DNA from: a virus
DNA length: 53,334 nucleotides
Strand: one strand, 5' to 3'
IMG/VR virus record: IMGVR_UViG_3300045988_147485
Numbering within the stretch: position 1 is the stretch's first letter; each line of letters opens with the position of its first letter. A program made the position numbers and the translations under genes. The notes beneath the pieces were generated by a model. It worked only from the letters and a program-made list of their open reading frames with translations, did no database searches and was not told the DNA's origin. Below are positions 3,001 through 53,334 of this stretch, one piece after another.

Positions 3001-4347
3001 CATTGATAACGCTTTTGACGCCATGATGGAAGTCTCTCCAAGCATCACTGCGGAGTTAGTAATCTGTGAAATAGCGGCGTTGTAATTCATAACCTTTGTT
3101 ATATTAAGACCAAGATTATTCTGCATCTTGCTTTCCAGATCTCCTGTGTTGTAATCCACATTAAATCCAGTCATTTGAGTTTGCAGTTTTGAAAATCTGG
3201 TTCTAAAACTCTTTGCATATTCTTCCGCGCTTTTATACCCTGCATCTGCAAAATTTTCGGCACTATCTTTTCCGATTTTGTCTAATGCAACAGAAAAATA
3301 GTTAAATTCCTCTATGTAGTCCTGCGCTGATCCGATTGCACTGCCAAGTCCCTTTAATGCTCTTATGGCTATCCACGCCTTGGCATAAAACAATCCTACA
3401 ACCTGTGCCATATTCTTCGTGCCTTTATTAAACGGACTGAATTTTGAAGCAGCCTCTTTTATCTTGTTCCCAAAGAAAGACGCAACTTTTGATCCTCTGT
3501 TTGCCGATCCAGAAAAACCATTTAATGCCGTTCCCGCTTTTGATCCGGCAGTAGCCAAATTACCTATTGCTGATACAAGCTGAACTGTTCCTTGTGACAC
3601 CTGCGGCGCACTTTGCAACGATTTTATAAATAACAACAGTTTGTCAGAAAGATTTTTCAAGTTGTCTGCCGTCTGCTTTGTCCTCATGCCGGCACTTGCT
3701 AATTTTGCAATGGCTGTTGTTATTTCTGTAGTTCCTGCATCTACAACCGGTGCCTTTGCCAGTGTTTTTATAAATGATTCTAAATTTTTTTGCATCAGCG
3801 GCAATCCGCTTGCTGACATACCTGTTTTACTTCCTGCGCTTGCCAGTCTCGCAATTGCGCCAACTACCCTTGTTACGCTATTTTCTATTTTGCCAGCAGA
3901 AGAAAGGCTACTTACAAGGCTTGTAATTCCGTTACCGATGCTTCCTAACTTGGAAACATCCACATTGCCGCTCAATGATGTTGTAAGCCTTGCTATAGCA
4001 CTTACCATGCTGTTTACATTCTTGTTATTAAAATTTGTATTCCCTATGTTTTTTAATGATGCCGATAACGGATTAAGTGCATTGCTAACAGTGGATATTT
4101 TTTTTCCGTCCAGTTCTTCAAACTTTTTTAATCCTTTTACTGTTCTTGTAAAATCCGGCATTTTGACATCTTTCATTTTATTCATTCCAGATGCCATCAT
4201 ATTTATTCCACTTGAAAATTTCTGCATCCCTTTTGTGTCGATTCTTGTAATAGATTTTGATAAATTTTCCAATTTTCGACATAAAGAATCAATATTTTTT
4301 TCTGCTTTACTTGTTTCCGCAGAAATCTCCAATTCTAAAGAATCCAT
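1..4347 (-). CDS. Tape measure protein, N-terminal 1449 codons (continues across the junction into 53279..52944)
   Basis: My own translation from ATG at 4347 (RBS GAGGTGGA at 4362-4369) stays open down to base 1. It begins MDSLELEISAETSKAEKNIDSLCRKLENLSK and is rich in A/G/S/K with hydrophobic glycine-rich stretches. It sits directly after the G/GT chaperones. It is absent from the ORF track because it has no stop inside the window edge. Confidence 0.85.
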   Translation of the reverse strand, partial: MDSLELEISAETSKAEKNIDSLCRKLENLSKSITRIDTKGMQKFSSGINMMASGMNKMKDVKMPDFTRTVKGLKKFEELDGKKISTVSNALNPLSASLKNIGNTNFNNKNVNSMVSAIARLTTSLSGNVDVSKLGSIGNGITSLVSSLSSAGKIENSVTRVVGAIARLASAGSKTGMSASGLPLMQKNLESFIKTLAKAPVVDAGTTEITTAIAKLASAGMRTKQTADNLKNLSDKLLLFIKSLQSAPQVSQGTVQLVSAIGNLATAGSKAGTALNGFSGSANRGSKVASFFGNKIKEAASKFSPFNKGTKNMAQVVGLFYAKAWIAIRALKGLGSAIGSAQDYIEEFNYFSVALDKIGKDSAENFADAGYKSAEEYAKSFRTRFSKLQTQMTGFNVDYNTGDLESKMQNNLGLNITKVMNYNAAISQITNSAVMLGETSIMASKALSMLSADWSSLANEDLQTTMDHLRSGMIGMSRAVYSYGIDITKAGLAQTAFNHGVSESVNSMSQNEKIQLRILTMLEQSKVAYGDLGRTINQPANQLRMLQAGFENLARSIGALFIPVLEKVYPYLNAVVMVLQDFVSWVSKLAGIKLGDLSNSWKMPDYGDAADDMDDYAKSTNKAAKSTKKLADNIQGFDVLNKLQDNSTSDGTQKTNPGNGNDFDLSADIAKALKGYESIWDKAFNSNKNKAVQYAQRIKKEILKGWRKGGDYTEIGKALGTWISNGLSKIPWASIQGTGKKLAKSLATFLNGLIRGTDWVVIGQTIAEGLNTGIGVAYTFLTTFDFLAFGQSIATGLDSAIRRFDWTKTGKLMGAKLRSIITFAFGAISTLKSKNTFNILGEKIGDLINGFFEDMNKVGKSGKSGWQELGESISDGIKGIGDTLIYAMEKVKWDEVGKAIGDFLGSIDWIGILGKTAHVITTALWSLLKTAFYAFKTNPAGMTQTIITVFSAVFAYKKLKGILSIFTSLFSSGIGGGIDGAAPIVQGKFTTMLTSLKGSPKLSAAGTAIGSVMGAAIVAAVAVSWAKSQWQETLSKYSPSEVAEETPLLLKPFSGLGVLLSGEYSASEWVSGIGDMISDKIDLALHGAHYDSKFETTESRVNSRLKELGKLTNGGKRQEEYLADMKKKNRKLYNKMFVDTWDSEGKNVRERRDEYYQKNQTRTAAYKSLKGIRGSEDAESLVSKALTMFKSGQIDYQTYDNLMAKTYKSTAEWNNALDDARTSSRLTNGNIKEFNKYGEKFKKTMDKAGVSTGVTSTALYVLKKKLDKGEISFDQYKKICDKSYKSTKDFYTQLNKIAGKKVTTSIKTEIEGMNQVDDLGRKIDKIAPGVYFKVDADVSEVEGKIKNLTTGKNIKVSASFNTKDLMSKIRKELGGLKGKDGNPLIPTAQLFPTAKQVKSYFNSLIKKGAFDTDMTSKFLKGVKVDKKAKKVRMKRTGITVLDSTSAAPY

Positions 4348-31119: not shown

Positions 31120-31543
31120 CTCTCAATGTTTTCAGTTTTTTTACTTCTTTGTTCTCTGTCATACTATTCCTCGCTTCCATGTATCTTCCACTGGCAATCA
31201 ATCTGTCAATTTCTCCCTCTAATTCATCATATGTGACCTTTATTTCACACATTTTCCCGTTTTCATCGTTGTACTCTATCCTGTGACCGCTTGCATCAGA
31301 CATCCCTTGATGCACAACGCAAGGATCATTGCTCCAGAATCCAAAACCACCTACGCCATATTCTTTTTTCAAAAATGTAACTCTGTCTGATTTTTTCGGA
31401 TTTTCAGAAAAGAACTTTGTTATTCGTTCCTTCCCCTTAACAAATCCACTTCCATGCATGGCGTATGCTGCTATCGGATTGAAATGTTTCTTTGGTTGTG
31501 TTTTTAAGAAGTCAAATATGCTCATTTGATTATTCAAGTTCAT
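31100..31543 (-). CDS. Hypothetical protein; polyvalent-protein-associated-domain-like
   Basis: FLKKEYGVGGFGF motif. Sits directly downstream of the DPPY methyltransferase. Confidence 0.35.
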   Translation of the reverse strand: MNLNNQMSIFDFLKTQPKKHFNPIAAYAMHGSGFVKGKERITKFFSENPKKSDRVTFLKKEYGVGGFGFWSNDPCVVHQGMSDASGHRIEYNDENGKMCEIKVTYDELEGEIDRLIASGRYMEARNSMTENKEVKKLKTLRGGENER

Positions 31544-32262
31544 ACTGTATCTCCTATAAGATCACTCAATATCATTTGTGCCATTTCGGTATCTAACCTT
31601 TGCTTTGATACCTTGTAATAGTATTCGTCAAGCTCAAATCCAACAAATTTATGGTTAGTGTTATAGCAAGCTATCAAGCTACTAGCACTGCCTACATGAG
31701 TATCAAGTATAATGTCATTCGGCTTTGCGTATCTGCTTAATAACCATTCATATAACGCAACTGGTTTCTGCGTTGGATGTATGCGCTTTTCATTCAATCT
31801 CTTGTTACCCTGTTGGGTAGTACCTTCAGTAATTGATTTCCCTTGGAACATTCCTCGCCACATATAGCGAAAAATATCAACCCTATCATTCATACTGCAG
31901 TATGCTATTTCTGCGTCTGACTGGTCGCTTCCATCGTTGCATTTATCCCAAACGATACGACCGCCTATTAGCGGATAATCAAAGTAATTGCAGCCAAAAA
32001 TAATTTGTTTTTTTGAAACTCTCATAACTTCATTGAAGTAATCTTCTGAAGGTGGCTCATTATCCCAATTCTGATTTCTGTACTGCCCATCTTTTACGAA
32101 TATTTTACTTCCGTTTTTCTGCCTAACATATCCGCTTCTATTTCTTCCACCATGTTCCTTTCTCCCATATGGCGGGTCAACAATCGCAAGGTCAAAATAT
32201 TTGTCGGGGAATTCTTTCATGCCCTGCATACAATCCATGTTGTAATATCCAAAATCTAACAT
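31540..32262 (-). CDS. DNA methyltransferase, N6-adenine/N4-cytosine class (DPPY, beta-type order)
   Basis: IVDPPYG catalytic motif near the N-terminus. HPTQKP and ILDTHVGSASS (AdoMet-binding region) near the C-terminus. Confidence 0.8.
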   Translation of the reverse strand: MLDFGYYNMDCMQGMKEFPDKYFDLAIVDPPYGRKEHGGRNRSGYVRQKNGSKIFVKDGQYRNQNWDNEPPSEDYFNEVMRVSKKQIIFGCNYFDYPLIGGRIVWDKCNDGSDQSDAEIAYCSMNDRVDIFRYMWRGMFQGKSITEGTTQQGNKRLNEKRIHPTQKPVALYEWLLSRYAKPNDIILDTHVGSASSLIACYNTNHKFVGFELDEYYYKVSKQRLDTEMAQMILSDLIGDTV

Positions 32263-33338: not shown

Positions 33339-33719
33339 TTACACATAACCTCTATTGCTTAATTCTATCGCTCTTTTTTCGGCTGCTATCTTGATAGCAC
33401 TTTTTTGGTCAAATGCAAAAACATCAACTTTTACATCCCCGTCATTAAATATTGTTACTGGATTATCGTTCGGGTCAAAATATTCCAGCCCGTCTTCATA
33501 GGTTTTTTTAACATTTCCATTTTTATCAAAGTAAATATTATAGAATTTTTTGCTCTGAAAAATAGGGTTGTAATTTTCCGTATCAAATTCCTCTATCCTT
33601 GCCGGGCTCCATTCTGTAGAGAATTTCTCTTTCAATATCTGCGCTTTTTCGTTGTCTGTTTCCACCGCGCAAATATGATATTCTGAATAGTCTCCTTTTG
33701 TTATCACATACACTTTCAT
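33339..33719 (-). CDS. Hypothetical protein (126 aa)
   Basis: ORF on the dominant strand. Confidence 0.4.
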   Translation of the reverse strand: MKVYVITKGDYSEYHICAVETDNEKAQILKEKFSTEWSPARIEEFDTENYNPIFQSKKFYNIYFDKNGNVKKTYEDGLEYFDPNDNPVTIFNDGDVKVDVFAFDQKSAIKIAAEKRAIELSNRGYV

Positions 33720-35651
33720 ACTTTTATCTTCCTTTCTTTAATAATTTCCTTATATAAATCTTCTTTTCCTGGAAATAACTGTCCTAAAATCGCAACAAGA
33801 ACATTTACGACAATGGAATTTCCAGATTGTTTGTATAACTGCGTATTTGAATTAACTTTTTCTGCCTTTTCAAAATCTTCATCCGAAAAATCCATCAATC
33901 TCCAACATTCTTTCGGTGTCAATTTTCTGATTCGGTATTGTGTTGCAACTTTTATCTGTTGTGTGCCGCCACCATTAACAGTAGTAATATTAGGACATAG
34001 TGCTTTTTCATCGTATACTGTGTTTGATTGATGCTGACCAGTTCCATTATCCATAAATCCTAACTGATTAGGCTTTTCCAACACCAAATTATCTTTCTGC
34101 ACACTTGTCAGGCAATTACTTGTACCATTATTATTTAATTCAAGTGTCTGTTCCAACTCAATTCCGGGTGTACGGTCAGATGGTTTTGTTGTATTTCTTC
34201 CACGCATTGCATCACAAACTTTCTCATCAGTAATATAGTTATAACTTCCACCGGGTAAGTTTGCCGGTAAACATAAGGAACATTCTCCCATCTGATAAAC
34301 TCTTTCCTGCTGATAATATTGTGTTCCGTTGTTTGACTTTTTTTCACCTAAACCACAGACACATTTTGTTTCTATAATTTTAGGTTGCAATCCACCGCCT
34401 CCACAAGTATTCATTGTTGGTGCCACACCTCCTATATCATAAACACGATTGGCACTTTCAAATGTATGGTCTATCGTGTTATCCATTTGACCTATTATTT
34501 TTACATCTGCCATTTTCATCACCTCAATAACTCCGCAGCACATTTTATTTACTCTTTCAGTAGGGCATATCGCACCCTCACAAATCTTTGGGCCACCAAA
34601 CTTTTTACTTTCAAAAAGTGTTATACCTATTGCATATTTAACTTTTGACATTCAATCACTCCATTGGTTCCATAGTTATTTATCCCTTTATAATCTCTTG
34701 ACATAAGCGTTGATGATACATCAATTTTTTGTGCTTGTGGTTCTAATTGTTTATCAATCATTCCTTTCAACAATACAGTTTCCATCTGACCGCAAGTTTG
34801 AGATTCCTGTGTCATATCTTGCCTTAATGCAGTTTCCGACTTGCTTTTCTCTTGGCTCGTTAATTGTTCCGTCAACGCAAATCTGCTCTGCTCTGCTCTA
34901 TTGATTGTATTTTGAAGTGTTTCGTTGTCAATTAGTTTCTGTATCAATTTCTGTGCTTTTTCGTTATTGATGTAATACTTCTCGTCAACTTCATCTTCCA
35001 GATAATCTTTCATCACTTTTTGCAGTTCAATAGGGTTTGGAAATGTAAAGTTATAATTTCCTAAAATACTAACCATAAAGCAACGATTTCTATTTTGAGC
35101 AACACCATAATTCTTTGCGTTTAAATCCTGCCAATAATTTGAATAACCTTTGCTTTCAAGGAATGCTATCCATCTTTGAAAATCTTCCATATTCTTCTTT
35201 CCGTGAACCTGTGGAACATTCTCCATAAGTAACACTTGTGGTAAATTGCCAACCTCATTCAGCAACCGTTCTACTTCCCACAATAGTCCGGACCTGGTGC
35301 CGCTACCTTTAACCATTCCCTTTTGTTTACCGGCAACCGATAAATCTTGACAAGGAAAAGAGTAAGTAAGTAAGTAAAGGTTTCAGTGTCAACTATTCCA
35401 AGATCAGAACCTCTTATTTGAGTTATGTCTGTAGGATCAAAACAAGTTCCGTGAATTTCGTTGTAACTTTTAATAGCAAATTTATCAAACTCGATTACTT
35501 TGTAATGTTCGAAGTCAGATCCAAGCATTTTTAATGCCATAGCTTGTGATCCTATTCCAGCAAAAAGTTCTATTAAACGAATTGGTTTTTTTATCTTAAA
35601 TGGCTTCTTTATAAGGTGAAGCAAATCAATTTGTTCATACATACTATCCAT
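33716..35651 (-). pseudogene. Multispecific-type DNA (cytosine-5) methyltransferase split into three ORFs (35651-35271, 35316-34627, 34651-33716)
   Basis: Motif I ELFAGIGS is in ORF1. Motif IV TYSFPCQDLS is readable only in the next frame just after a (TTAC)4 repeat. ENV and QNRNR are in ORF2. RKLTPKECWRLMDF and GNSIVVNV are in ORF3. Four TRD-like TL/PTM/CLT/NIT segments lie between motifs VIII and IX. Confidence 0.75.
35362..35377 (-). repeat. Tetranucleotide repeat (TTAC)x4 on the coding strand at the methyltransferase frame break
   Basis: The plus strand reads GTAAGTAAGTAAGTAA. Five or two units would fuse motif I to motif IV in frame (..TFTYLLTYSFPCQDLS..). Confidence 0.9.
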
Positions 35652-36590: not shown

Positions 36591-36854
36591 TTACTCGTCC
36601 TCCTTCCCATCATCAGAAGAACCTCTCAATTTATCAATCAGTTCGTCAAAAAGTTTCAAAATATGATCTTTTGTTTCTTCTGTGATTTCTTTTTCGCTTT
36701 TTCTTGAATCAGAAATCACTTTTTCTAATTCATCATTTCCAATGTTTTCTCGCAGTGCTCTCAACAATGTACAAGTTTCTGCCATGATTACTATCTTAAT
36801 TCCATCTACGCGTACCGTTCCTTTGTCTACATGAATCATAATATTTTCACTCAC
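36591..36854 (-). CDS. Hypothetical acidic protein (87 aa)
   Basis: ORF overlapping the RT stop. Confidence 0.4.
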   Translation of the reverse strand: MSENIMIHVDKGTVRVDGIKIVIMAETCTLLRALRENIGNDELEKVISDSRKSEKEITEETKDHILKLFDELIDKLRGSSDDGKEDE

Positions 36855-37884
36855 TTTCTAATATTTTTTTGCAATACAAATCCATTGTTTTGCATAATTT
36901 GATACAATTCCCATGCATTGCATGGTTTCTCCAAGCATTGTATTTTTCATAAAATTTTTCTTCTTGCATCTTGCCGCTTTTTACAAGTTTTGACCAAGAC
37001 AACAATTTTTTTCGTATTCTTCTTTTGTTGTAACTTTTTATCTTTCGTATATATTTTCCGTCCTCCGTCATGTAGTGATGGAAGCCAAGAAAACTAATAC
37101 CGCATTTGAATGGAATAATCTGCGTTTTGCCATTTAATGATAATCCAAGGCTTTTCACAAATTCTCTTATATATTCAAGGCACCATTTCAAATATTCTTT
37201 GTCATGGTGTATTAAGTAAAAATCGTCCATGTATCTTCCGTAAAGATCAATCCCCAGTTCTCCTTTTACCATCTTGTCCATTCCGTTTAGCATTAGCAAT
37301 GCATATATCTGTGCCGCTTGATTTCCTAACGGCAATCCAGGACTATCGGTGCTATTCACAAGAAGATGGTTCAACCATTTTACATAATCATCTTCAAAAT
37401 GATAATCTAAAATATCAAGAAGAATTTCATGGTCAATTTCGTAAAAGAATTTGTGGATGTCGCATTTTAGAATCCATCCATTTAATTTGTTTGAATTGTA
37501 AAAAGTAGTCATATGTTCTTTCAAACAATCCATACCAAATAAAGTACCTTTTCCTATCTGCCCGGCATAATTTGTCCTTATAAACTCATCTGCTAAAACG
37601 GGATGCAAAATATTGTCACACAAGCAATGTTGAACTACTTTGTCCTTGAAAGAGCAAGACTTAATCACTCTCTCTTTTGGTTCATAAATTTTGAACTCAT
37701 TGTATTTGCTCATTTTATATGTTTGATTCTCTAAACTCTCTTTCAAGATATTTAATCCGTCAAGGCTCATGCTCTTAAATTTCGTACAACTTCCGTTATT
37801 AGTTTTGCCAGATTTAGCACGCCTATATGCCGTATATAGGTTGTCAAAATCACATATGATACTTTTACAATCCAAATTAAACAC
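36847..37884 (-). CDS. DGR reverse transcriptase
   Basis: RT motifs QIGKGT, GLPLGNQAAQIYALLML (DGR-type motif 4) and RYMDDFYLIH (YxDD). It sits directly downstream of the template repeat and avd. The start is GTG 37884 or, more likely, TTG 37875. Confidence 0.85.
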   Translation of the reverse strand: MFNLDCKSIICDFDNLYTAYRRAKSGKTNNGSCTKFKSMSLDGLNILKESLENQTYKMSKYNEFKIYEPKERVIKSCSFKDKVVQHCLCDNILHPVLADEFIRTNYAGQIGKGTLFGMDCLKEHMTTFYNSNKLNGWILKCDIHKFFYEIDHEILLDILDYHFEDDYVKWLNHLLVNSTDSPGLPLGNQAAQIYALLMLNGMDKMVKGELGIDLYGRYMDDFYLIHHDKEYLKWCLEYIREFVKSLGLSLNGKTQIIPFKCGISFLGFHHYMTEDGKYIRKIKSYNKRRIRKKLLSWSKLVKSGKMQEEKFYEKYNAWRNHAMHGNCIKLCKTMDLYCKKILESE

Positions 37885-37973
37885 TCCTTTGTATTTACCC
37901 TTTTCGGGATGGTCATGCGATTTTTTGTATCTTTGTCTGGTTTCGGCTTATTGCCTACTCCGTCTGCCTGTTT

Positions 37974-38050
37974 GATACAGAATGGGCGAACACCATTGTT
38001 GTTGTTGCAGTTATTGTTGTTGATATTGCCGTCCGGCGCAACAACCGCCA
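37974..38050 (-). repeat. DGR template repeat (TR), 77 nt, AAY-rich
   Basis: Noncoding copy of the three VRs. The variable block reads GAC GGC AAT ATC AAC AAC AAT AAC TGC AAC AAC AAC AAT. It starts 25 nt after the avd stop. Confidence 0.85.
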
Positions 38051-38075
38051 AAATTCATCGCATAACCAATATTTT

Positions 38076-38441
38076 TTATCTTTCCTTGTCTTTGGTTCTC
38101 CATGCAATAGCCATGTGTTTTATGTCCGAAACCATCTTTGACCAATATTCCATGCTTTTCACATTGATAATGTTAAGTTTCATAGATAGTTCGATGTAAA
38201 ACAATAAGTTATCACACCTTGTTATTGCTTTTGTCTGTAATTCAGACCTTTCCCTTTTGTATTTACGAATATCTGTCCTGTTTGCTTCTGTAAGATATGC
38301 GTAAATTTCTAATGCACTATTTTGCATCTTATCTACCAACGAAAACCTGTATTTTTTAGGATACCTATTACAATTTGAGGTAATCCTTAATGTATGTTCT
38401 GCCAGTTCCATTGATTTTACGATTACTTTCAAATCTGCCAT
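38076..38441 (-). CDS. avd: DGR accessory variability determinant (Avd, four-helix-bundle protein)
   Basis: 121-aa basic helical protein (ELAEHTLRITSNCNRYPKKYRFSLVDKMQNSALEIYAYL) in the canonical position between target and TR. Confidence 0.75.
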   Translation of the reverse strand: MADLKVIVKSMELAEHTLRITSNCNRYPKKYRFSLVDKMQNSALEIYAYLTEANRTDIRKYKRERSELQTKAITRCDNLLFYIELSMKLNIINVKSMEYWSKMVSDIKHMAIAWRTKDKER

Positions 38442-38454
38442 CTACCATCAGTCC

Positions 38455-39057
38455 TTACGATTCAAAGATTTCAGATTTTAAGATACAAACTGGGCGAACG
38501 CCATACTTGCCGCAGCAGCTAATGCCGTTGATATTGCCGCCCGGCGCAACAACCGCCACGCTACTTTCGTAGCCGTTGCTCTTTGTACTCCATGGCGTGC
38601 AGAGCCACCACCATTCGCCCGTGTTTGGCAAAAGTTTTCTGTATTTTCTATATTCGTCAACCGTCAATAAAGAAATCAACTCCACCGTATCTTCGTACTC
38701 ATCAATTCCATCCAGAGAAATAAGATCTCTTCCAAGTGGCAAAATATTTCCTACCCCGATTTCATCTTTAATCTTTTCCAACAAATCATTGTTGAGGTAT
38801 TCTCTCAATTTACTTTTAGACCAATCATTACTGCGTGAATCAAATTTCATGTCTCCGATACTGCTATTGGCAATACAAAAATATCCATCATTTGTTTTGT
38901 CCAAGATTTTCCATTCGATTGTGGCAAGGTTAAATGTGTCTCCGATTTTTAATCCGGCCGGAAGTAATCTCGATTCTTTTTTGAGGACTTCCATTGCTTT
39001 TGTCAGTTCATTTATCTTGTCCTGCAATGTCTCGATTGCTAAGTTATTTTTACCCAT
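38455..39057 (-). CDS. DGR target protein 1 (C-terminal variable ligand-binding domain)
   Basis: Start MGKNNLAIE after AAAGGAGGAAAA. C-terminus WWWLCTPWS...AVVAPGGNINGISCCGKYGVRPVCIL carries VR1. No signal peptide or TM segment. Confidence 0.8.
   Translation of the reverse strand: MGKNNLAIETLQDKINELTKAMEVLKKESRLLPAGLKIGDTFNLATIEWKILDKTNDGYFCIANSSIGDMKFDSRSNDWSKSKLREYLNNDLLEKIKDEIGVGNILPLGRDLISLDGIDEYEDTVELISLLTVDEYRKYRKLLPNTGEWWWLCTPWSTKSNGYESSVAVVAPGGNINGISCCGKYGVRPVCILKSEIFES
38482..38558 (-). repeat. DGR variable repeat VR1
   Basis: Aligns to the TR over 77 nt. In the variable block, 9 differences are at TR adenines and 2 are not (AAC->AAG, GGT->GGC). Two further non-adenine differences are in the 3' IMH-like end. 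Confidence 0.85.
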
Positions 39058-39058
39058 T

Positions 39059-39661
39059 TTAATTTTCCTCCTTTGATACAAAGATATTAGAGTTTAAGAT
39101 ACAAACCGGGCGAACACCATCGCCGTCGTTGCAGCTATGGCTGCCGATATAGCCGACCGGCGCAACAACCGCCAAACTACTCCATCCACGGTCGGATGTA
39201 CTCCATTGCGTTATTGTCCACCACCAATCGTTAAGTTTGTTGCAAACTAAAAGGTCATTGTATTTTCTCGCCTCATCAAAGGTAATTGGGCGAAAAATTT
39301 CCTCTGTAACTTTTGATTTGTTCTGTCCGTCAACACTTTCCAAAGAAACCTCATGCTTTATGAAATTTTCTTTTCCAATTTTCGCAATCAATGGGTTTTC
39401 AATGTTATTTTCAATAACCTTCTTTAAGTTTGAAGAACAATAATCAGTACTTTCTCCAAATTCAACACTTTCATCTGTTACAAAGCCTTTTGTAATAGCA
39501 AGTGTCCCTCCATTGTACTCATGATCGAGAACAATAAAGTCTTCCTCGCCAGCCACAAAACTGTCTCCCGGATTAAGAGACGATAATAAAACCTTGTTAT
39601 CAGAATTAAGTTCATTGACAATTTCCATTGCCAATTTGTAAATTTTGTCTTTTTTGTCCAT
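39059..39661 (-). CDS. DGR target protein 2
   Basis: Start MDKKDKIYKLA after AAAGGAGGTAAAGGA. C-terminus WWWTITQWS...AVVAPVGYIGSHSCNDGDGVRPVCIL carries VR2. Confidence 0.8.
   Translation of the reverse strand: MDKKDKIYKLAMEIVNELNSDNKVLLSSLNPGDSFVAGEEDFIVLDHEYNGGTLAITKGFVTDESVEFGESTDYCSSNLKKVIENNIENPLIAKIGKENFIKHEVSLESVDGQNKSKVTEEIFRPITFDEARKYNDLLVCNKLNDWWWTITQWSTSDRGWSSLAVVAPVGYIGSHSCNDGDGVRPVCILNSNIFVSKEEN
39098..39174 (-). repeat. DGR variable repeat VR2
   Basis: All 12 differences from the TR upstream of the IMH-like end are at TR adenines. Confidence 0.85.
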
Positions 39662-39674
39662 TCCTTTACCTCCT

Positions 39675-40094
39675 TTAGTTAAATGGCAATTCCGATTCGA
39701 TGTTTTCTGGTATTTCCATAAAATCATCATCATCCTGTTTCTGTGTAGGTTCGGCGTTATTGTTGCCTCCGGCCTGTTTCCGCTCGGCAAACTCGATTTC
39801 ATCTGCCATGATCTGGACGCTGTACACTTTCTCTCCGTTCTTATTTGTGTAGTTGTCGTTCTGAACACGGCCTACCAGAAGCATACGAGAACCCTGTCTG
39901 AAATATTTTTCAACAAATTCTGCCTGTTTACCAAAGGCAGTACAATTAAAAAAATCTACATTAGTTTCTCCCTCACGAGGAAATCTCCTATTTATTGCTA
40001 AACTGAATCTAGCAATAGCCATAGTTTTTTCGCCCTGTGTATAACGGATTTCCGGGTCTCTTGTAAGATTTCCCATCAAAATCACTTTATTCAT
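39675..40094 (-). CDS. ssb: Single-stranded DNA-binding protein
   Basis: MNKVILMGNLTRDPEIRYT...FFNCTAFGKQAEFVEKYFRQGSRMLLVGRVQN OB fold, with the acidic tail ESELPFN. Confidence 0.9.
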   Translation of the reverse strand: MNKVILMGNLTRDPEIRYTQGEKTMAIARFSLAINRRFPREGETNVDFFNCTAFGKQAEFVEKYFRQGSRMLLVGRVQNDNYTNKNGEKVYSVQIMADEIEFAERKQAGGNNNAEPTQKQDDDDFMEIPENIESELPFN

Positions 40095-40110
40095 CTCATT
40101 CTCCTTTCTA

Positions 40111-40827
40111 CTAAAAAGGGCATTCGTATTTCCCTCTTATTTCAATTTTCATTCCTGGATGTGCTATGTATGTATCGCATTCAGAAACTTCCTTTATTTC
40201 AGCCAGTATTCTTTCTTCGTCTGTGCTTTCTTTCCCTAAGTGGCAAAGAATTACTGTTGAAAGAAATTTTGTTTTACTGGACTGAACAAAATTCTTTACT
40301 GTAAAAAGTTCTGCATGGCCCTTTATTTTGTGAATGTTTTTTGAATCCTCTACATTCACAAGATTTTGAATGTAATTACATTCAAGGACCATATGGTCAA
40401 TTTTTCTTTTTGCAAAATTGTACGGGCAATACTCAAAGTCCGTAATGTATAATATTGTTTCATCTTCATGCGAAATCAAGAATCCACAATTTCTCGTGCC
40501 ATCGTGCGGCACTTGAAAAGCAGTAATTTTGAAGCCGCCCAACTTCTCCGCAATCATTACTCTTGCATCTGCACTTATCATTTCCAGTTCTTCATATGGT
40601 TTGAAAACTGGTATACCGCATTTTTCAATCTCTTTTATTGACCGGGAGTGGTCAAAGTGTTTATGTGACACCACACACCCAACAACTTTTTTTATATTCC
40701 AATCAAGCATTTCTTTGATACTTTTAATTGGCATCCCAGCATCAAGAAGAAGTGTCTCTTCTTGACAAGTTATTGCGTATGCATTTCCGCTGCTCCCGGT
40801 TCCGCAACATCTAAAATCCACAATCAT
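40111..40827 (-). CDS. MBL-fold metallo-hydrolase
   Basis: SHKHFDHS (HxHxDH) motif, 238 aa. Confidence 0.7.
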   Translation of the reverse strand: MIVDFRCCGTGSSGNAYAITCQEETLLLDAGMPIKSIKEMLDWNIKKVVGCVVSHKHFDHSRSIKEIEKCGIPVFKPYEELEMISADARVMIAEKLGGFKITAFQVPHDGTRNCGFLISHEDETILYITDFEYCPYNFAKRKIDHMVLECNYIQNLVNVEDSKNIHKIKGHAELFTVKNFVQSSKTKFLSTVILCHLGKESTDEERILAEIKEVSECDTYIAHPGMKIEIRGKYECPF

Positions 40828-40830
40828 TCC

Positions 40831-41400
40831 TTACGATTCAAAGATTTCAGATTTTAAGATACAAACTGGGCGAACACCATTGCTGCTGAGGCAGTTAAGG
40901 TTGCGGATAAAGCCGCCCGGCGCAACAACCGCCACGCTACTTTCGTAGCCGTTGCTCTTTGTACTCCATGGCGTGCAGAGCCACCACCATTCGCCCGTGT
41001 TTGGCAAAAGAGAACGGTATTTTTTGTACTCATCGGCGGTCAAAATCGACACCAGGTCATATGTTCCTCCATAATCTTTAAGGCCATCTAAAGAAGTTAA
41101 ATCTCTTTCGATTATATGTAAGTTTTCCCTTCCGATTTCATCTACAAAAGAATCAGATAAAATATTACTTAATTCACTGTCCCGCCAATTATTGCTTTCT
41201 TCATCAAACTTGTATTTTTCATCCAGAAAATCGGCAATAACCAAGTAACCTCCTTTTACTTTGTCAAGGCAAGTGAATTTAATGCCTCTGAACTCAAACC
41301 TATCACCAATTTCGGGTGGTTTAACAAAATTGATACTCTTGTTGTTTTCGAGTTCCCGTACCTTTTTTTCTAACATTTCAACTCTTTCTTCTAAATGCAT
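40831..41400 (-). CDS. DGR target protein 3 (close paralog of target 1)
   Basis: Start MHLEERVEML after AAAGGAGAAAAAT. C-terminus ...AVVAPGGFIRNLNCLSSNGVRPVCIL carries VR3. The 3' 180 bp are identical to target 1 outside the VR. Confidence 0.8.
   Translation of the reverse strand: MHLEERVEMLEKKVRELENNKSINFVKPPEIGDRFEFRGIKFTCLDKVKGGYLVIADFLDEKYKFDEESNNWRDSELSNILSDSFVDEIGRENLHIIERDLTSLDGLKDYGGTYDLVSILTADEYKKYRSLLPNTGEWWWLCTPWSTKSNGYESSVAVVAPGGFIRNLNCLSSNGVRPVCILKSEIFES
40858..40934 (-). repeat. DGR variable repeat VR3
   Basis: All 11 differences from the TR in the variable block are at TR adenines. Confidence 0.85.
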
Positions 41401-41413
41401 ATTTTTCTCCTTT

Positions 41414-43309
41414 CTATAAATCATTTTTTATTTTCAGTTTTTCGTCACTAACAACCATGATTACAACTTGGTTTTCAATCATTTCCAGTGCCGCTTTTAA
41501 GTTGTTTGTATCAAGGCTCTCTCCATCATCTATGAAAACAGGGCATTTAATACCGTATTTTCTTTGCATGGATTGGCAAATGTCAATTTTACCAAGGATC
41601 CTCTTTGCCTTGTTGGACATTGTGTTTGTGATTGAAAAACCGTCTACCATTGGTGTACAGGTATTTTTTATCGTTCCTGCTTTACCTCTTTCAAAAAGTT
41701 TCCATTCCACAAAAGAAAATTTTTTGTTTACATCTTCCTGCAAAGATTCTGCTTTTTTGACCTCAAATTCCGTCAAAAGAGAAAGTATTCTTTGAGCATC
41801 CGTAGCAGTTTGAGCCACTTCCCGTTTTTCTTTTGTAAGTTCCTCAATTCTCTCTTCCTCTTTTTCCGTGTTTGCGTCTGATATATATTTTTTTGCTTCT
41901 ACCAACTGCTGCCGTAAATCACTTTCTTTGATCCGCAACTGTTCTCTCTTTCCAGAAATAGAGGAATATTTTTTTATTGCTTCTTCTTTTTCAGAGATTT
42001 CATTCTGAATCCGTATGTACTCCGGAGTGCCGGATATATCCGCTTTTTCCGGTATTTTTGAAAGTTCCCTTGACTTTTCGCACAACTTCTCTTTCAATAC
42101 AGAAAGAGTTTTCTCCGCAAAATTTACAGATTCATCATTTTCCTTGATCTCCTGTTCCAGTTTTTCAATGGCTTCTTTTGCATATTTCCCGTACTTTTCA
42201 ATCTCCAAAAGTGATTTTTTTATGCCCTCATTAAATTCTTCTTTCTTTTTCTCCTGCTCATCCTCTTCATAAGGTCTGCCACAGGTAGGGCATACTAAGC
42301 AATTTTCATCCATTTCAGCCGATTTCAAAGCTTCCCATTTCTCACGATGCACCCGGATTTCATTTTTATATGCCGTTATCTCATCCGTTATATTGGAAGT
42401 ATTATTTTTGAGAGAATCAATTTTTTTCTCCATCTTCTCAATCTCATCCTTGATACAAGACATTTCATATGCCGTTGTATTCCTCTCTTTATTGATCCGA
42501 TCCTGTTCTTTCATCGTTAAATTGTTCTGCTTAAATTTCAGTTCCAATATACCGTCAGAGATCGTTTTGTATTTCTCTTCCATGATAGAATTGTTTTCTA
42601 TTAAGGAAACAGTTTCATCAATTTCTTTCTCTAACTGTTTCTTTAACAGTTCCATTTCGGAAATATCCTTGTCCTCTTTTTCCTTAATCTGATCTCTAAG
42701 GACACGGATTTCAGCATCTATTTTTGTGATGTTTTCATCACAGTCTTTTTTCTTTTGTTTCGCCTTTGCCGTTATCTCTTCTACTGTGTTTTTTGAAAGA
42801 AGTTCGGAAAGTTCTTCATTGTCCGCAATTTCTTCATCTGGCTTTGCGGAAATACCAGACAAAAGAATTTTTCTCATTTCATCCGGCTTTTTCTGAATAA
42901 AGCCGTCACAAAAACTGCACAACAGCAGAATGTCCTTTTTTACCGGAAATGCTTCTTCAAAATTCCTTTTTGTCATTTTTACACTATTCACAAAGTATGT
43001 GTTAGCGTCTTTGTATTCCGTTCCGTCCTCTGAAATGGTTCTTTTCTGAACCTTTTCAAATTCAATCTCTTTCCCGTCCTCTGTCTCAATTACAGCCATG
43101 ACAGAAACCGGCTCTTCTTTCCCTCTCATCCTTACTTCTGGTGCAGATTTCATGAGAGAGTCAGTATCAAAAAACAGCCAAGCATAAGCATCAAAGTATG
43201 TGCTTTTCCCTGCGGCATTTTCTCCGCTTATGATATTTTTTTCTGCAAACTCTACCGATTCACTTTCAAAATTTTTGAAGTTTTTAAGAATCAGCCTTTT
43301 TAACTTCAT
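41414..43309 (-). CDS. SMC/Rad50/SbcC-like AAA ATPase with long coiled coil
   Basis: Walker A GENAAGKST at the N-terminus, a central coiled coil with a CxxC hook-like CPTCGRP, and Walker B PVFIDDGESLD at the C-terminus. Confidence 0.7.
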   Translation of the reverse strand: MKLKRLILKNFKNFESESVEFAEKNIISGENAAGKSTYFDAYAWLFFDTDSLMKSAPEVRMRGKEEPVSVMAVIETEDGKEIEFEKVQKRTISEDGTEYKDANTYFVNSVKMTKRNFEEAFPVKKDILLLCSFCDGFIQKKPDEMRKILLSGISAKPDEEIADNEELSELLSKNTVEEITAKAKQKKKDCDENITKIDAEIRVLRDQIKEKEDKDISEMELLKKQLEKEIDETVSLIENNSIMEEKYKTISDGILELKFKQNNLTMKEQDRINKERNTTAYEMSCIKDEIEKMEKKIDSLKNNTSNITDEITAYKNEIRVHREKWEALKSAEMDENCLVCPTCGRPYEEDEQEKKKEEFNEGIKKSLLEIEKYGKYAKEAIEKLEQEIKENDESVNFAEKTLSVLKEKLCEKSRELSKIPEKADISGTPEYIRIQNEISEKEEAIKKYSSISGKREQLRIKESDLRQQLVEAKKYISDANTEKEEERIEELTKEKREVAQTATDAQRILSLLTEFEVKKAESLQEDVNKKFSFVEWKLFERGKAGTIKNTCTPMVDGFSITNTMSNKAKRILGKIDICQSMQRKYGIKCPVFIDDGESLDTNNLKAALEMIENQVVIMVVSDEKLKIKNDL

Positions 43310-52947: not shown

Positions 52948-53334
52948 GCCATACTCCATGATGTGCCGCCACGGCCTTTACTTATTTTTGTTGCGTTATT
53001 CATTACCTCTGTTGTAATCTTTTTGCCGTCCAGGTATACATCCCCTCCACCAATATCCATTTTACCGATGGTTTCATTTATGGCCGCTTTTACGGCGGTA
53101 TAAACACTAGGAGCAACGGCGTTTGTAATTCCGGTGTATATCTGTTCGTTGTTTACGACTTTATTCTGTGATCCTACTTTTCCTACAAGTTCCGGTCCAC
53201 TTTCTCTTGCCATAAACATTTGACCAACTGGCGGTGTACCACCATTCTTGTACCACTCTACCTTATATCCGGCCGCTATGTACGGTGCCGCACTGGTAGA
53301 ATCAAGAACAGTTATGCCTGTTCGTTTCATTCTT
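52944..53334 (-). CDS. Tape measure protein, C-terminal part (joins to 4347..1 by circular wrap)
   Basis: The track ORF MKRTGITVLDSTSAAPY... overlaps the 55-bp repeat in the same frame as the ORF running off base 1. Combined gene is 4683 nt including the stop. Confidence 0.85.
   Translation of the reverse strand, partial: RMKRTGITVLDSTSAAPYIAAGYKVEWYKNGGTPPVGQMFMARESGPELVGKVGSQNKVVNNEQIYTGITNAVAPSVYTAVKAAINETIGKMDIGGGDVYLDGKKITTEVMNNATKISKGRGGTSWSMA
53280..53334. repeat. Terminal direct repeat (copy 2), identical to 1-55
   Basis: Same 55-mer as the window start. Consistent with circular contig closure or terminal redundancy. Confidence 0.95.

Follow-up and report, generated by a model that had tools for sequence, protein, structure and literature searches.

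The ingredients of the locus described here are already known separately: repeat-driven methyltransferases of bacteria, a repeat that changes specificity (NgoAV), multispecific cytosine-5 (C5) enzymes of phages and the split enzyme M.AquI. In the multispecific enzymes of Bacillus phages, according to the literature from the Trautner laboratory, each target recognition domain (TRD) is said to act independently. The NgoAV Type I system of Neisseria gonorrhoeae alters the translated specificity module and the recognised sequence through the length of a polyG tract in hsdS1 (PMC9577141). M.AquI is a natural two-polypeptide C5-methyltransferase whose smaller polypeptide holds the rest of the variable region together with motifs IX and X, and detached fragments of other C5-methyltransferases complement each other (PMC3404938). 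Here we describe a C5-methyltransferase locus on the minus strand of the viral record IMGVR_UViG_3300045988_147485, a stretch of 53,334 nucleotides (nt) referred to below as the window. We consider it likely, at a probability of about 70%, that this is a phage contingency locus for a split C5-methyltransferase, in which a first simple sequence repeat (SSR1) turns the enzyme on and off and a second (SSR2) picks one of two overlapping recognition modules, TRD-A and TRD-B, by setting which of three reading frames (states A, B and C) follows it.

A split C5-methyltransferase with two non-triplet repeats

The locus consists of three overlapping open reading frames (ORFs; 35651-35271, 35316/35370-34627 and 34651-33716), each matching PF00145, of which they cover profile positions 2-60, 65-252 and 239-322, respectively. 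The first-pass annotation, made from the letters of this DNA, had claimed that all C5-methyltransferase motifs occur in order over three overlapping ORFs, and this was borne out on the minus strand: motifs I, IV (PCQ), VI, VIII, IX and X are all there, split over two subunits that we call alpha and beta. The features of the locus, all on the minus strand, are as follows.

33716-35651, minus strand: C5-methyltransferase locus, all features
35378-35651, minus strand: N-terminal segment of alpha with motif I (ORF translation; PF00145 positions 2-60)
35547-35564, minus strand: motif I, FAGIGS
35362-35377, minus strand: SSR1, (TTAC)4, which is (GTAA)4 on the plus strand; encodes part of TYLLTY, directly before motif IV
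34900-35361, minus strand: catalytic core of alpha with motifs IV, VI and VIII (PF00145 positions 65-252, E=1.4e-37)
35338-35361, minus strand: motif IV, SFPCQDLS
35206-35223, minus strand: motif VI, ENV
35083-35097, minus strand: motif VIII, QNRNR
34915-34962, minus strand: helix after motif VIII, EKAQKLIQKLIDNETL
34882-34899, minus strand: SSR2, (AGAGC)3.6, 18 nt, at the boundary of core and TRD (Tandem Repeats Finder, period 5 x 3.6)
34754-34879, minus strand: hidden TRD-A, CVDGTINEPREKQVGNCIKARYDTGISNLRSDGNCIVERND, and its stop (34756-34754); read only in SSR2 state A
34726-34881, minus strand: frame-B spacer, FALTEQLTSQEKSKSETALRQDMTQESQTCGQMETVLLKGMIDKQLEPQAQK; mostly TRD-A DNA in another frame, stop-free
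34651-34725, minus strand: TRD-B, IDVSSTLMSRDYKGINNYGTNGVIE, the C-terminus of alpha in state B
34627-34662, minus strand: alpha/beta junction, with GGAG at 34662-34659, a 7-nt spacer and the beta ATG at 34651-34649
33716-34651, minus strand: beta subunit, 311 amino acids (PF00145 positions 239-322)
34520-34651, 34370-34519, 34220-34369, 34076-34219 and 33944-34075, minus strand: five TRD-like segments of beta
33887-33928, minus strand: motif IX, RKLTPKECWRLMDF
33800-33823, minus strand: motif X, GNSIVVNV

The predicted enzyme is a DNA (cytosine-5) methyltransferase of the PF00145/TIGR00675 dcm family. Alpha, once its frame is repaired, matches TIGR00675 over positions 2-252 with 141.8 bits (cut-off 100.65), and beta matches positions 231-329. 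M.MpeI and M.HhaI are the best solved-structure matches; alpha aligns to residues 9-278 of M.MpeI (4dkj), and residues 297-394 of M.MpeI align to beta residues 201-297. Since alpha and beta together span the whole dcm/PF00145 model as well as M.MpeI, they are predicted to constitute a two-subunit C5-methyltransferase, and the division, with motifs I-VIII in alpha and motifs IX-X in beta, is by its sequence an M.AquI-type two-ORF split in the variable region. Two start codons are candidates for alpha: the ATG at 35651 abuts AGGA (35655-35652) without a spacer, and the ATG at 35642 has a 9-nt spacing. The latter is predicted to be the more likely start because of this spacing and because the MYEQ that it gives matches the N-termini of relatives (MYEQ/MNEQ).

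Beta is laid out as five TRD-like segments followed by motifs IX and X. The four TRD-like segments listed in the first-pass annotation are present, but that count was too low: seven were found (five in beta, one in alpha frame B and one hidden), all picked out by pattern and cassette exchange, and only the last of them aligns to the TRD of a solved enzyme. The beta segments are swapped cassette-wise between relatives.

SSR1 lies at the first frame break, exactly where the first-pass annotation had placed it. With four units, as in the window, the frame runs to a stop at 35271-35273 and yields a 126-amino-acid product without the catalytic cysteine. Because four units truncate alpha in this way SSR1 is scored OFF, and with its PCQ motif outside the reading frame the allele of the window is expected to have no activity. 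Adding one TTAC unit gives an in-frame ...DTETFTYLLTYSFPCQDLS..., equal in length to DTDMYCYIMTYSFPCQDLS of the intact Dulem virus 39 enzyme, in agreement with the earlier claim that five units restore the frame.

SSR2 and the TRD hidden behind it had been missed in the first-pass annotation. After SSR2, frame A reads CVDGTINEPREKQVGNCIKARYDTGISNLRSDGNCIVERND and then a stop; frame B is an open hydrophilic stretch that leads through TRD-B (IDVSSTLMSRDYKGINNYGTNGVIE) to a stop overlapping the start of beta; and frame C reads RADLR and then a stop, leaving alpha without a TRD of its own. The 18 nt of the window put it in state B, from which one unit fewer leads to state A and one unit more to state C. 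TRD-A, out of frame in the alpha ORF of the window, encodes a peptide with 51% identity over 37 amino acids (E=3e-11) to in-frame residues 321-357 of the Dulem virus 39 enzyme.

Neither repeat has a unit length that is a multiple of 3. AGAGC reads RAEQS and TTAC reads TYLL in every frame, and neither contains stop codons; since these non-triplet units give the same stop-free cyclic peptide in all frames, the tracts are frame-neutral linkers, and the length of SSR2 modulo 3 sets the downstream frame. In the 53 kb of the window, repeats of at least 15 nt with a 4-8 nt unit number just two, both in this gene; first-order Markov simulations gave a mean of 0.17 such repeats per window and P(>=2) = 0.007. 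The SSR1 and SSR2 sites are also the sole places where family members have repeats with a 4-9 nt unit (searched from -1100 to +1500 nt of the SSR2 flank). Other lineages carry different units at the SSR2 site, namely (CAGGCAGA)3-4, (CAGA)n, (GACA)11, (AACG)10+4 and (AGAGAAC)~3, whose lengths (4, 7 or 8 nt) are never divisible by 3. The placement of the repeats is not accidental. A distant relative on a contig of the Candidatus Scybalousia scybalohippi metagenome-assembled genome (L158, noted at 4237-4256; L numbers designate individual loci) has (TTAC)5 before motif IV and (AACG)10+4 at the SSR2 site, and carries an additional (AGAGC)4 at a TRD-cassette junction further downstream.

These features suggest how the locus may work. 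It would control whether and where the DNA of the phage, and of the lysogen, receives 5-methylcytosine (5mC). Alpha would bring motifs I-VIII and one C-terminal TRD, beta would bring five TRD-like cassettes and motifs IX-X, and the two presumably assemble like the subunits of M.AquI. SSR1, directly before the catalytic cysteine, would be the master ON/OFF switch, ON with five units, and SSR2 would choose the C-terminus of alpha: TRD-A, or a 45-amino-acid spacer followed by TRD-B, or none. Slipped-strand mispairing is the probable mutational process at both tracts, TRD-A and TRD-B would confer different target sequences, and the window would represent an allele with SSR1 OFF and SSR2 in state B. 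Type II restriction is blocked by methylation and Type IV restriction is triggered by it; the benefit might thus be bet-hedging between hosts with either kind of restriction. A wider proposal, to which we give somewhat less than even odds, is that temperate phages of gut Lachnospiraceae have in this locus an epigenetic switch that is both heritable and combinatorial, a split multispecific C5-methyltransferase with up to four hypermutable tracts and overprinted recognition modules chosen by repeat length, so that their populations would always be mixed in 5mC repertoire and hedge against both kinds of restriction. The four tracts meant are (TTAC)n, (AGAGC)n or another non-triplet unit, and two poly-G tracts found in relatives.

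Repeat length among relatives and within one strain

DNA-pattern scans of viral and metagenome collections yielded 109 unique loci; L126 and L172 were left out as unrelated, GC-rich chance matches to the pattern. Motifs I and IV could both be placed in 73 family loci, and SSR1 kept the frame in 62 of them (85%) and broke it in 11, compared with one third expected in frame if frames were random. SSR1 ranges from 3 to 7 units in relatives. The out-of-frame loci deviate by -1 unit (the window, L088, L092, L111, L112, L167, L188 and L216) or by +1 unit (L101, L113 and L171). The TYLLTY tract uses the one codon choice that yields a perfect repeat, while the flanking codons differ between lineages; lineages with CYIMTY or CYMMTY at this site have no repeat. 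For SSR2, the survey gave state A in 51, state B in 20 and state C in 19 loci (90 loci, drawn from the 109 unique ones). Loci found by protein similarity have SSR2 tracts of 13-63 nt, with 80 nt or more in one whose contig begins within the repeat, and perfect tracts reach 73 nt in the DNA-pattern loci.

The first-pass annotation had proposed phase-variable methylation and, as a check, the counting of repeat units in related genomes. This count was run on contigs from other samples that encode exactly the beta protein of the window and show 0-1 mismatch to it over ~1.9 kb. Three combinations of SSR1 units and SSR2 length (in nt) were found within this strain: 4/18 in six assemblies, 5/23 in Logan ERR13991864 and 7/53 in ENA ERZ28635232; one more same-strain contig begins in the SSR2 tract. 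Far from being fixed at four units, SSR1 thus occurs with 4, 5 or 7 units in a single strain as well as in and out of frame (62 and 11 loci) across the family. At least six assemblies (ENA, NCBI and Logan) yielded the 4/18 allele independently of one another, and a RecT-based look-up of same-strain contigs returned further 4/18 alleles and relatives without this methylase, and nothing else. In addition, SSR2 length and state differ within nine locus pairs whose 800 nt of flank show 0-2 mismatches. Whole-unit length polymorphism of this kind, with in-frame and out-of-frame alleles in near-identical genomes, supports the phase-variation idea.

Twelve independent contigs begin inside SSR2, in most cases with 55 nt of the repeat and no more (L166, L168, L180, L199, L204, L210, L212, L214, L220, L130, L131 and L143). 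Assemblies of these phages are prone to break here, which is an indirect hint that the tract may switch within a clonal population.

Poly-G tracts, absent from the window, are found in beta of many relatives (e.g., L085, L102, L105 and L207). They consist of 6-10 G and recur at two sites that lie ~275-420 nt past the SSR2 flank, one at QKGIIGGG and the other in the TRD core RIYDVGGCSPTL. The counts were 22 for G6, 23 for G7, 19 for G8, 13 for G9 and 9 for G10, and several of these lengths break beta. Such tracts are unexpected at ~38% G+C content, which suggests that they may be third and fourth switches. Some relatives are damaged outside repeats: in L010 a Trp codon of a beta TRD has become a stop (GNV*DKD, at ~4078-4082), and the methylase copy of a cultured isolate, Diplocloster hominis CSJ-3 (L159), is multiply broken. 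The nonsense codon of L010 and the breaks of L159 indicate that real decay also occurs in the family.

Selection on the overlapping modules and alternative explanations

If SSR2 selects between two modules, both should bear the marks of use. In the 114-nt overlap, variation by frame-A codon position was 0.166/0.134/0.257, highest at the third position and damped relative to the non-overlapping core (0.131/0.062/0.447). Mean pairwise amino-acid identity in the overlap was 0.74 in frame A compared with 0.60 in frame B and 0.60 in frame C; the better conservation of frame A indicates that TRD-A is the conserved protein and that the frame-B reading is only a spacer. Frame B was nevertheless open in 39/39 unique TRD-A variants, whereas the chance of an open frame B under synonymous recoding of frame A was 0.002-0.24 per variant (mean 0.018), the top value belonging to a 12-amino-acid truncated variant. 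TRD-B, which in split lineages is translatable only with SSR2 in state B, showed a coding signature in its heterozygosity by frame-B codon position (0.171/0.093/0.397; 26 unique sequences). The few exceptions to the overlap have been rearranged: in L092/L165 and L216 indels join A to B, and L188 has lost TRD-A by deletion. In L096, TRD-A contains a nonsense codon. Thus, there is purifying selection on TRD-A and on TRD-B, together with selection that keeps the overlapping frame open.

Several observations weigh against a contingency locus in which SSR2 selects modules. The scan pattern included one repeat unit plus the downstream flank, so the prevalence of SSR2 among all relatives cannot be inferred from it, and several relatives found by protein search lack SSR2. 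The evidence on repeat length is polymorphism between assemblies, that is, between consensus alleles. State B is no commoner than state C (20 vs 19 loci; 14 vs 12 among those with SSR1 in frame), and the state frequencies are therefore no evidence that B is favoured over truncation; their comparison between SSR1-ON and SSR1-OFF loci was likewise uninformative for state B (Fisher's test, p = 0.32). Finally, in ~22/56 relatives (~40%) the beta ORF does not reach motif IX, because of poly-G tracts or a nonsense codon, and a large part of the family may lack activity at any given moment, with decay and switching not cleanly separable.

The alternative with the most to say for it is that the repeats are hypermutable but SSR2 is a mere ON/OFF switch or a neutral slippery linker, with state A the sole functional form and with TRD-B and the open frame B as relics of an older in-frame arrangement. 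The lead of state A (51/90) with B and C equally frequent, the lack of conservation of the frame-B peptide across TRD-A and the lineages that resolved the overlap by deletion or frameshift of TRD-A (L092/L165, L188 and L216) are all in keeping with it. We nevertheless consider it unlikely, given the clear coding signature of a TRD-B that split lineages can reach only from SSR2 in frame B, the open frame B in every one of the 39 variants against a probability of ~0.02, and four loci in which frame B continues through motif IX as a single-chain enzyme.

The other discontinuity reported in the first-pass annotation (34627-34651) is real but need not be called unexplained, since it is the conserved boundary between the alpha and beta genes. 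The stop of alpha in frame B lies at 34627-34629, giving an overlap of 25 nt with the start of beta. In close and distant relatives alike, alpha ends in ...NGV(I/V)E(W/C)K.. with the ATG of beta embedded in those codons; the overlap measures 10-25 nt, and an SD-like (Shine-Dalgarno-like) GGAG stands upstream in 55/56 loci. Relatives without any repeats (L147, L149 and L153) keep the split. Single-chain forms are rare, comprising L155 and four loci in which frame B is fused to beta (L083/L100/L132/L145). Because the ATG of beta sits inside the 3' end of alpha behind GGAG, the two subunits are probably translationally coupled, to judge from this arrangement.

It could be argued instead that programmed ribosomal frameshifting at the junction joins alpha and beta in one polypeptide, without separate initiation of beta, as ORF overlaps of 10-25 nt and the existence of fused single-chain relatives (L155 and the L083 type) would allow. 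This seems improbable to us: the ATG occupies the same place in the GVIE(W/C) codons with GGAG 7 nt upstream (55/56 loci), a slippery heptamer is not evident in the window (GTGATTGAATGTCAAAAGTT), and two-subunit C5-methyltransferases are already known. Two further candidates were rejected. Homopolymer sequencing errors, considered for apparent breaks 3 and 4 at A3/A4 runs, do not apply, as the frame offsets and the ATG junction are common to all relatives; and stop-codon reassignment, with the TAG at the end of alpha read as sense, leads to a TAA two codons on.

The conserved boundary also bears on whether the locus is a decaying pseudogene whose frame breaks are ordinary inactivating mutations. 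The inability of the window allele to make a catalytic alpha, the further breaks of beta in many relatives and the badly broken copy of Diplocloster hominis CSJ-3 would fit such decay. The second break, however, is no sign of irreversible decay, as relatives share this boundary, GGAG and overlapping ATG included, whether or not they have repeats, and the single true break of the window is a whole-unit change in a repeat. The same strain also has an in-frame 5-unit allele, SSR1 is in frame at 85% of loci, purifying selection acts on TRD-A, TRD-B and the core, and the beta protein is identical (100%) in 14 contigs. Decay of the window locus is consequently very improbable. Hardly credible at all is an artefact of short-read assembly or sequencing as the source of the length differences, for although assemblers struggle in SSR2, as shown by the twelve contigs that start there mostly with 55 nt, the assembler word size, and although poly-G lengths in relatives are error-prone, the SSR1 (16-20 nt) and SSR2 (18-53 nt) alleles are shorter than reads, the 4/18 allele is found independently in at least six assemblies, and the differences are in whole units with identical flanks.

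Genomic setting and comparison with known systems

The ends of the window are an identical 55-nt direct repeat (1-55 and 53280-53334), as in a circularly closed assembly; these identical ends indicate a circular assembly with a 55-mer overlap and a genome of ~53,279 bp, with a GC content of 38%. The record corresponds to scaffold_384 of ENA assembly ERZ28595577 (human gut metagenome). It encodes a terminase, a portal protein, a tail fibre, a serine integrase, RecT, an SbcC-like protein, a second DNA methyltransferase and a reverse transcriptase, and this gene content, including the serine integrase, indicates a temperate phage. Contigs with relatives of the locus belong to genomes of Lachnospiraceae, Eubacterium, Roseburia and other Clostridia, with one relative located within a 1.67-Mb Eubacterium contig. 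Searching phage GenBank with 25 kb of the window did not find a close relative, only fragments at 78-81% identity.

Two neighbours of the locus deserve mention. The gene of the second DNA methyltransferase (31540-32262, minus strand), 1.5 kb downstream of beta, matches phrog_23224/phrog_67, and PF01555 (N6_N4_Mtase) was called for this enzyme on a same-strain contig (L225). A diversity-generating retroelement (DGR; 36847-41424, minus strand) adjoins the methylase module, with mismatches concentrated at the template adenines; an Avd-like gene was called in L235, a locus of the same source. The parts of the DGR are as follows.

36847-37884, minus strand: reverse transcriptase ORF of the DGR (phrog_1423)
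~37951-38057, minus strand: A-rich template repeat of the DGR, which includes a (TTG)9 match of Tandem Repeats Finder
38459-38565, 39075-39181 and 40835-40941, minus strand: three variable repeats of the DGR, at the 3' ends of three ORFs

L234 (ENA ERZ28618701) and L236 (Logan ERR11478214) have an identical RecT and the same DGR module but no alpha/beta methylase at that position; a different, 679-amino-acid PF00145 protein is located further downstream. Because these loci carry a different PF00145 protein elsewhere instead, the alpha/beta methylase appears to be a swappable cassette.

In the literature searched, and within that collection only, no matching description was found of an SSR-switched methylase that is phage-borne or a multispecific C5 enzyme. 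Nor did that literature describe the combination proposed here, which is phage-borne, C5-specific and split, with two repeats per gene and two overprinted TRDs chosen by repeat length. Phase-variable methyltransferases have so far been known as bacterial enzymes, mostly adenine methylases of pathogens; if our reading is true, they would include a cytosine methylase of phages that infect Clostridia and are abundant in the human gut. The design element for which no description was found is the overprinting of TRDs in different frames, picked by the length of a frame-neutral repeat and combined with a master ON/OFF repeat and a two-subunit architecture. This reading, if true, would provide a concrete mechanism by which a phage hedges against methylation-sensitive and methylation-dependent restriction, and would account for the "broken" look of such genes in metagenome annotations. 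It would also mean that frameshifted methylase genes and breaks in virome assemblies can be functional switches as opposed to pseudogenes or errors, and it would offer natural material for engineering split, switchable C5-methyltransferases.

The locus resembles the phase-variable methyltransferases of bacteria (Type III mod phasevarions, Type I hsdM/hsdS and Type IIG cj0031) in having an intragenic tetra- or pentanucleotide repeat, frame shifts by whole units, and ON and OFF alleles in otherwise identical genomes. Those enzymes, however, are N6-adenine methyltransferases on the chromosomes of host-adapted pathogens, whereas the predicted enzyme here is a C5-cytosine methyltransferase of a temperate phage of gut Clostridia. 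It also differs in that a single gene contains two repeats (as many as four per locus in relatives), the second of which would select coding frames beyond turning the enzyme ON and OFF. In that respect it resembles NgoAV, since the length of the repeat is predicted to change the specificity module made and not to act by plain silencing. In NgoAV, however, a homopolymer fuses or truncates two consecutive hsdS genes of an adenine methylase, while here a pentanucleotide would pick TRDs in overlapping frames and allow a third, null state. With M.AquI, and with M.EcoHK31I, the enzyme shares its division into two polypeptides at the same place. M.AquI, a monospecific enzyme of a bacterial restriction-modification system, lacks repeats, whereas the phage enzyme has five TRD-like cassettes in beta, a switchable C-terminus of alpha and an assembly that is presumed.

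The likeness to the multispecific Bacillus phage enzymes (SPR, phi3T, rho11s, H2 and SPbeta), suggested in the first-pass annotation, holds at the level of architecture: in both cases a phage encodes one core followed by tandem, cassette-like segments between motifs VIII and IX, which are TRDs in the Bacillus phage enzymes and TRD-like here, and motifs IX-X share 62% identity with the SPbeta/phi3T enzymes, with a DNA match to the phage H2 gene. The Bacillus phage enzymes are single polypeptides without repeats and with a fixed TRD set, in contrast to the split, repeat-switched arrangement with overlapping TRDs described here; the window and most relatives do not encode the single polypeptide of the SPR/phi3T/H2 type, which occurs as a fusion in a few. 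The closest annotated relative is the methyltransferase of Dulem virus 39 (XCD07457.1, PP511791.1), at 73% DNA identity over 34% of the region; it shares the core and the AMRGRNP...SVQKDN cassette and has a segment resembling TRD-A. It differs in being one unbroken ORF of 527 amino acids, with neither a TTAC nor an AGAGC repeat, with CYIMTY in place of TYLLTY and with its TRD-A homologue in frame.

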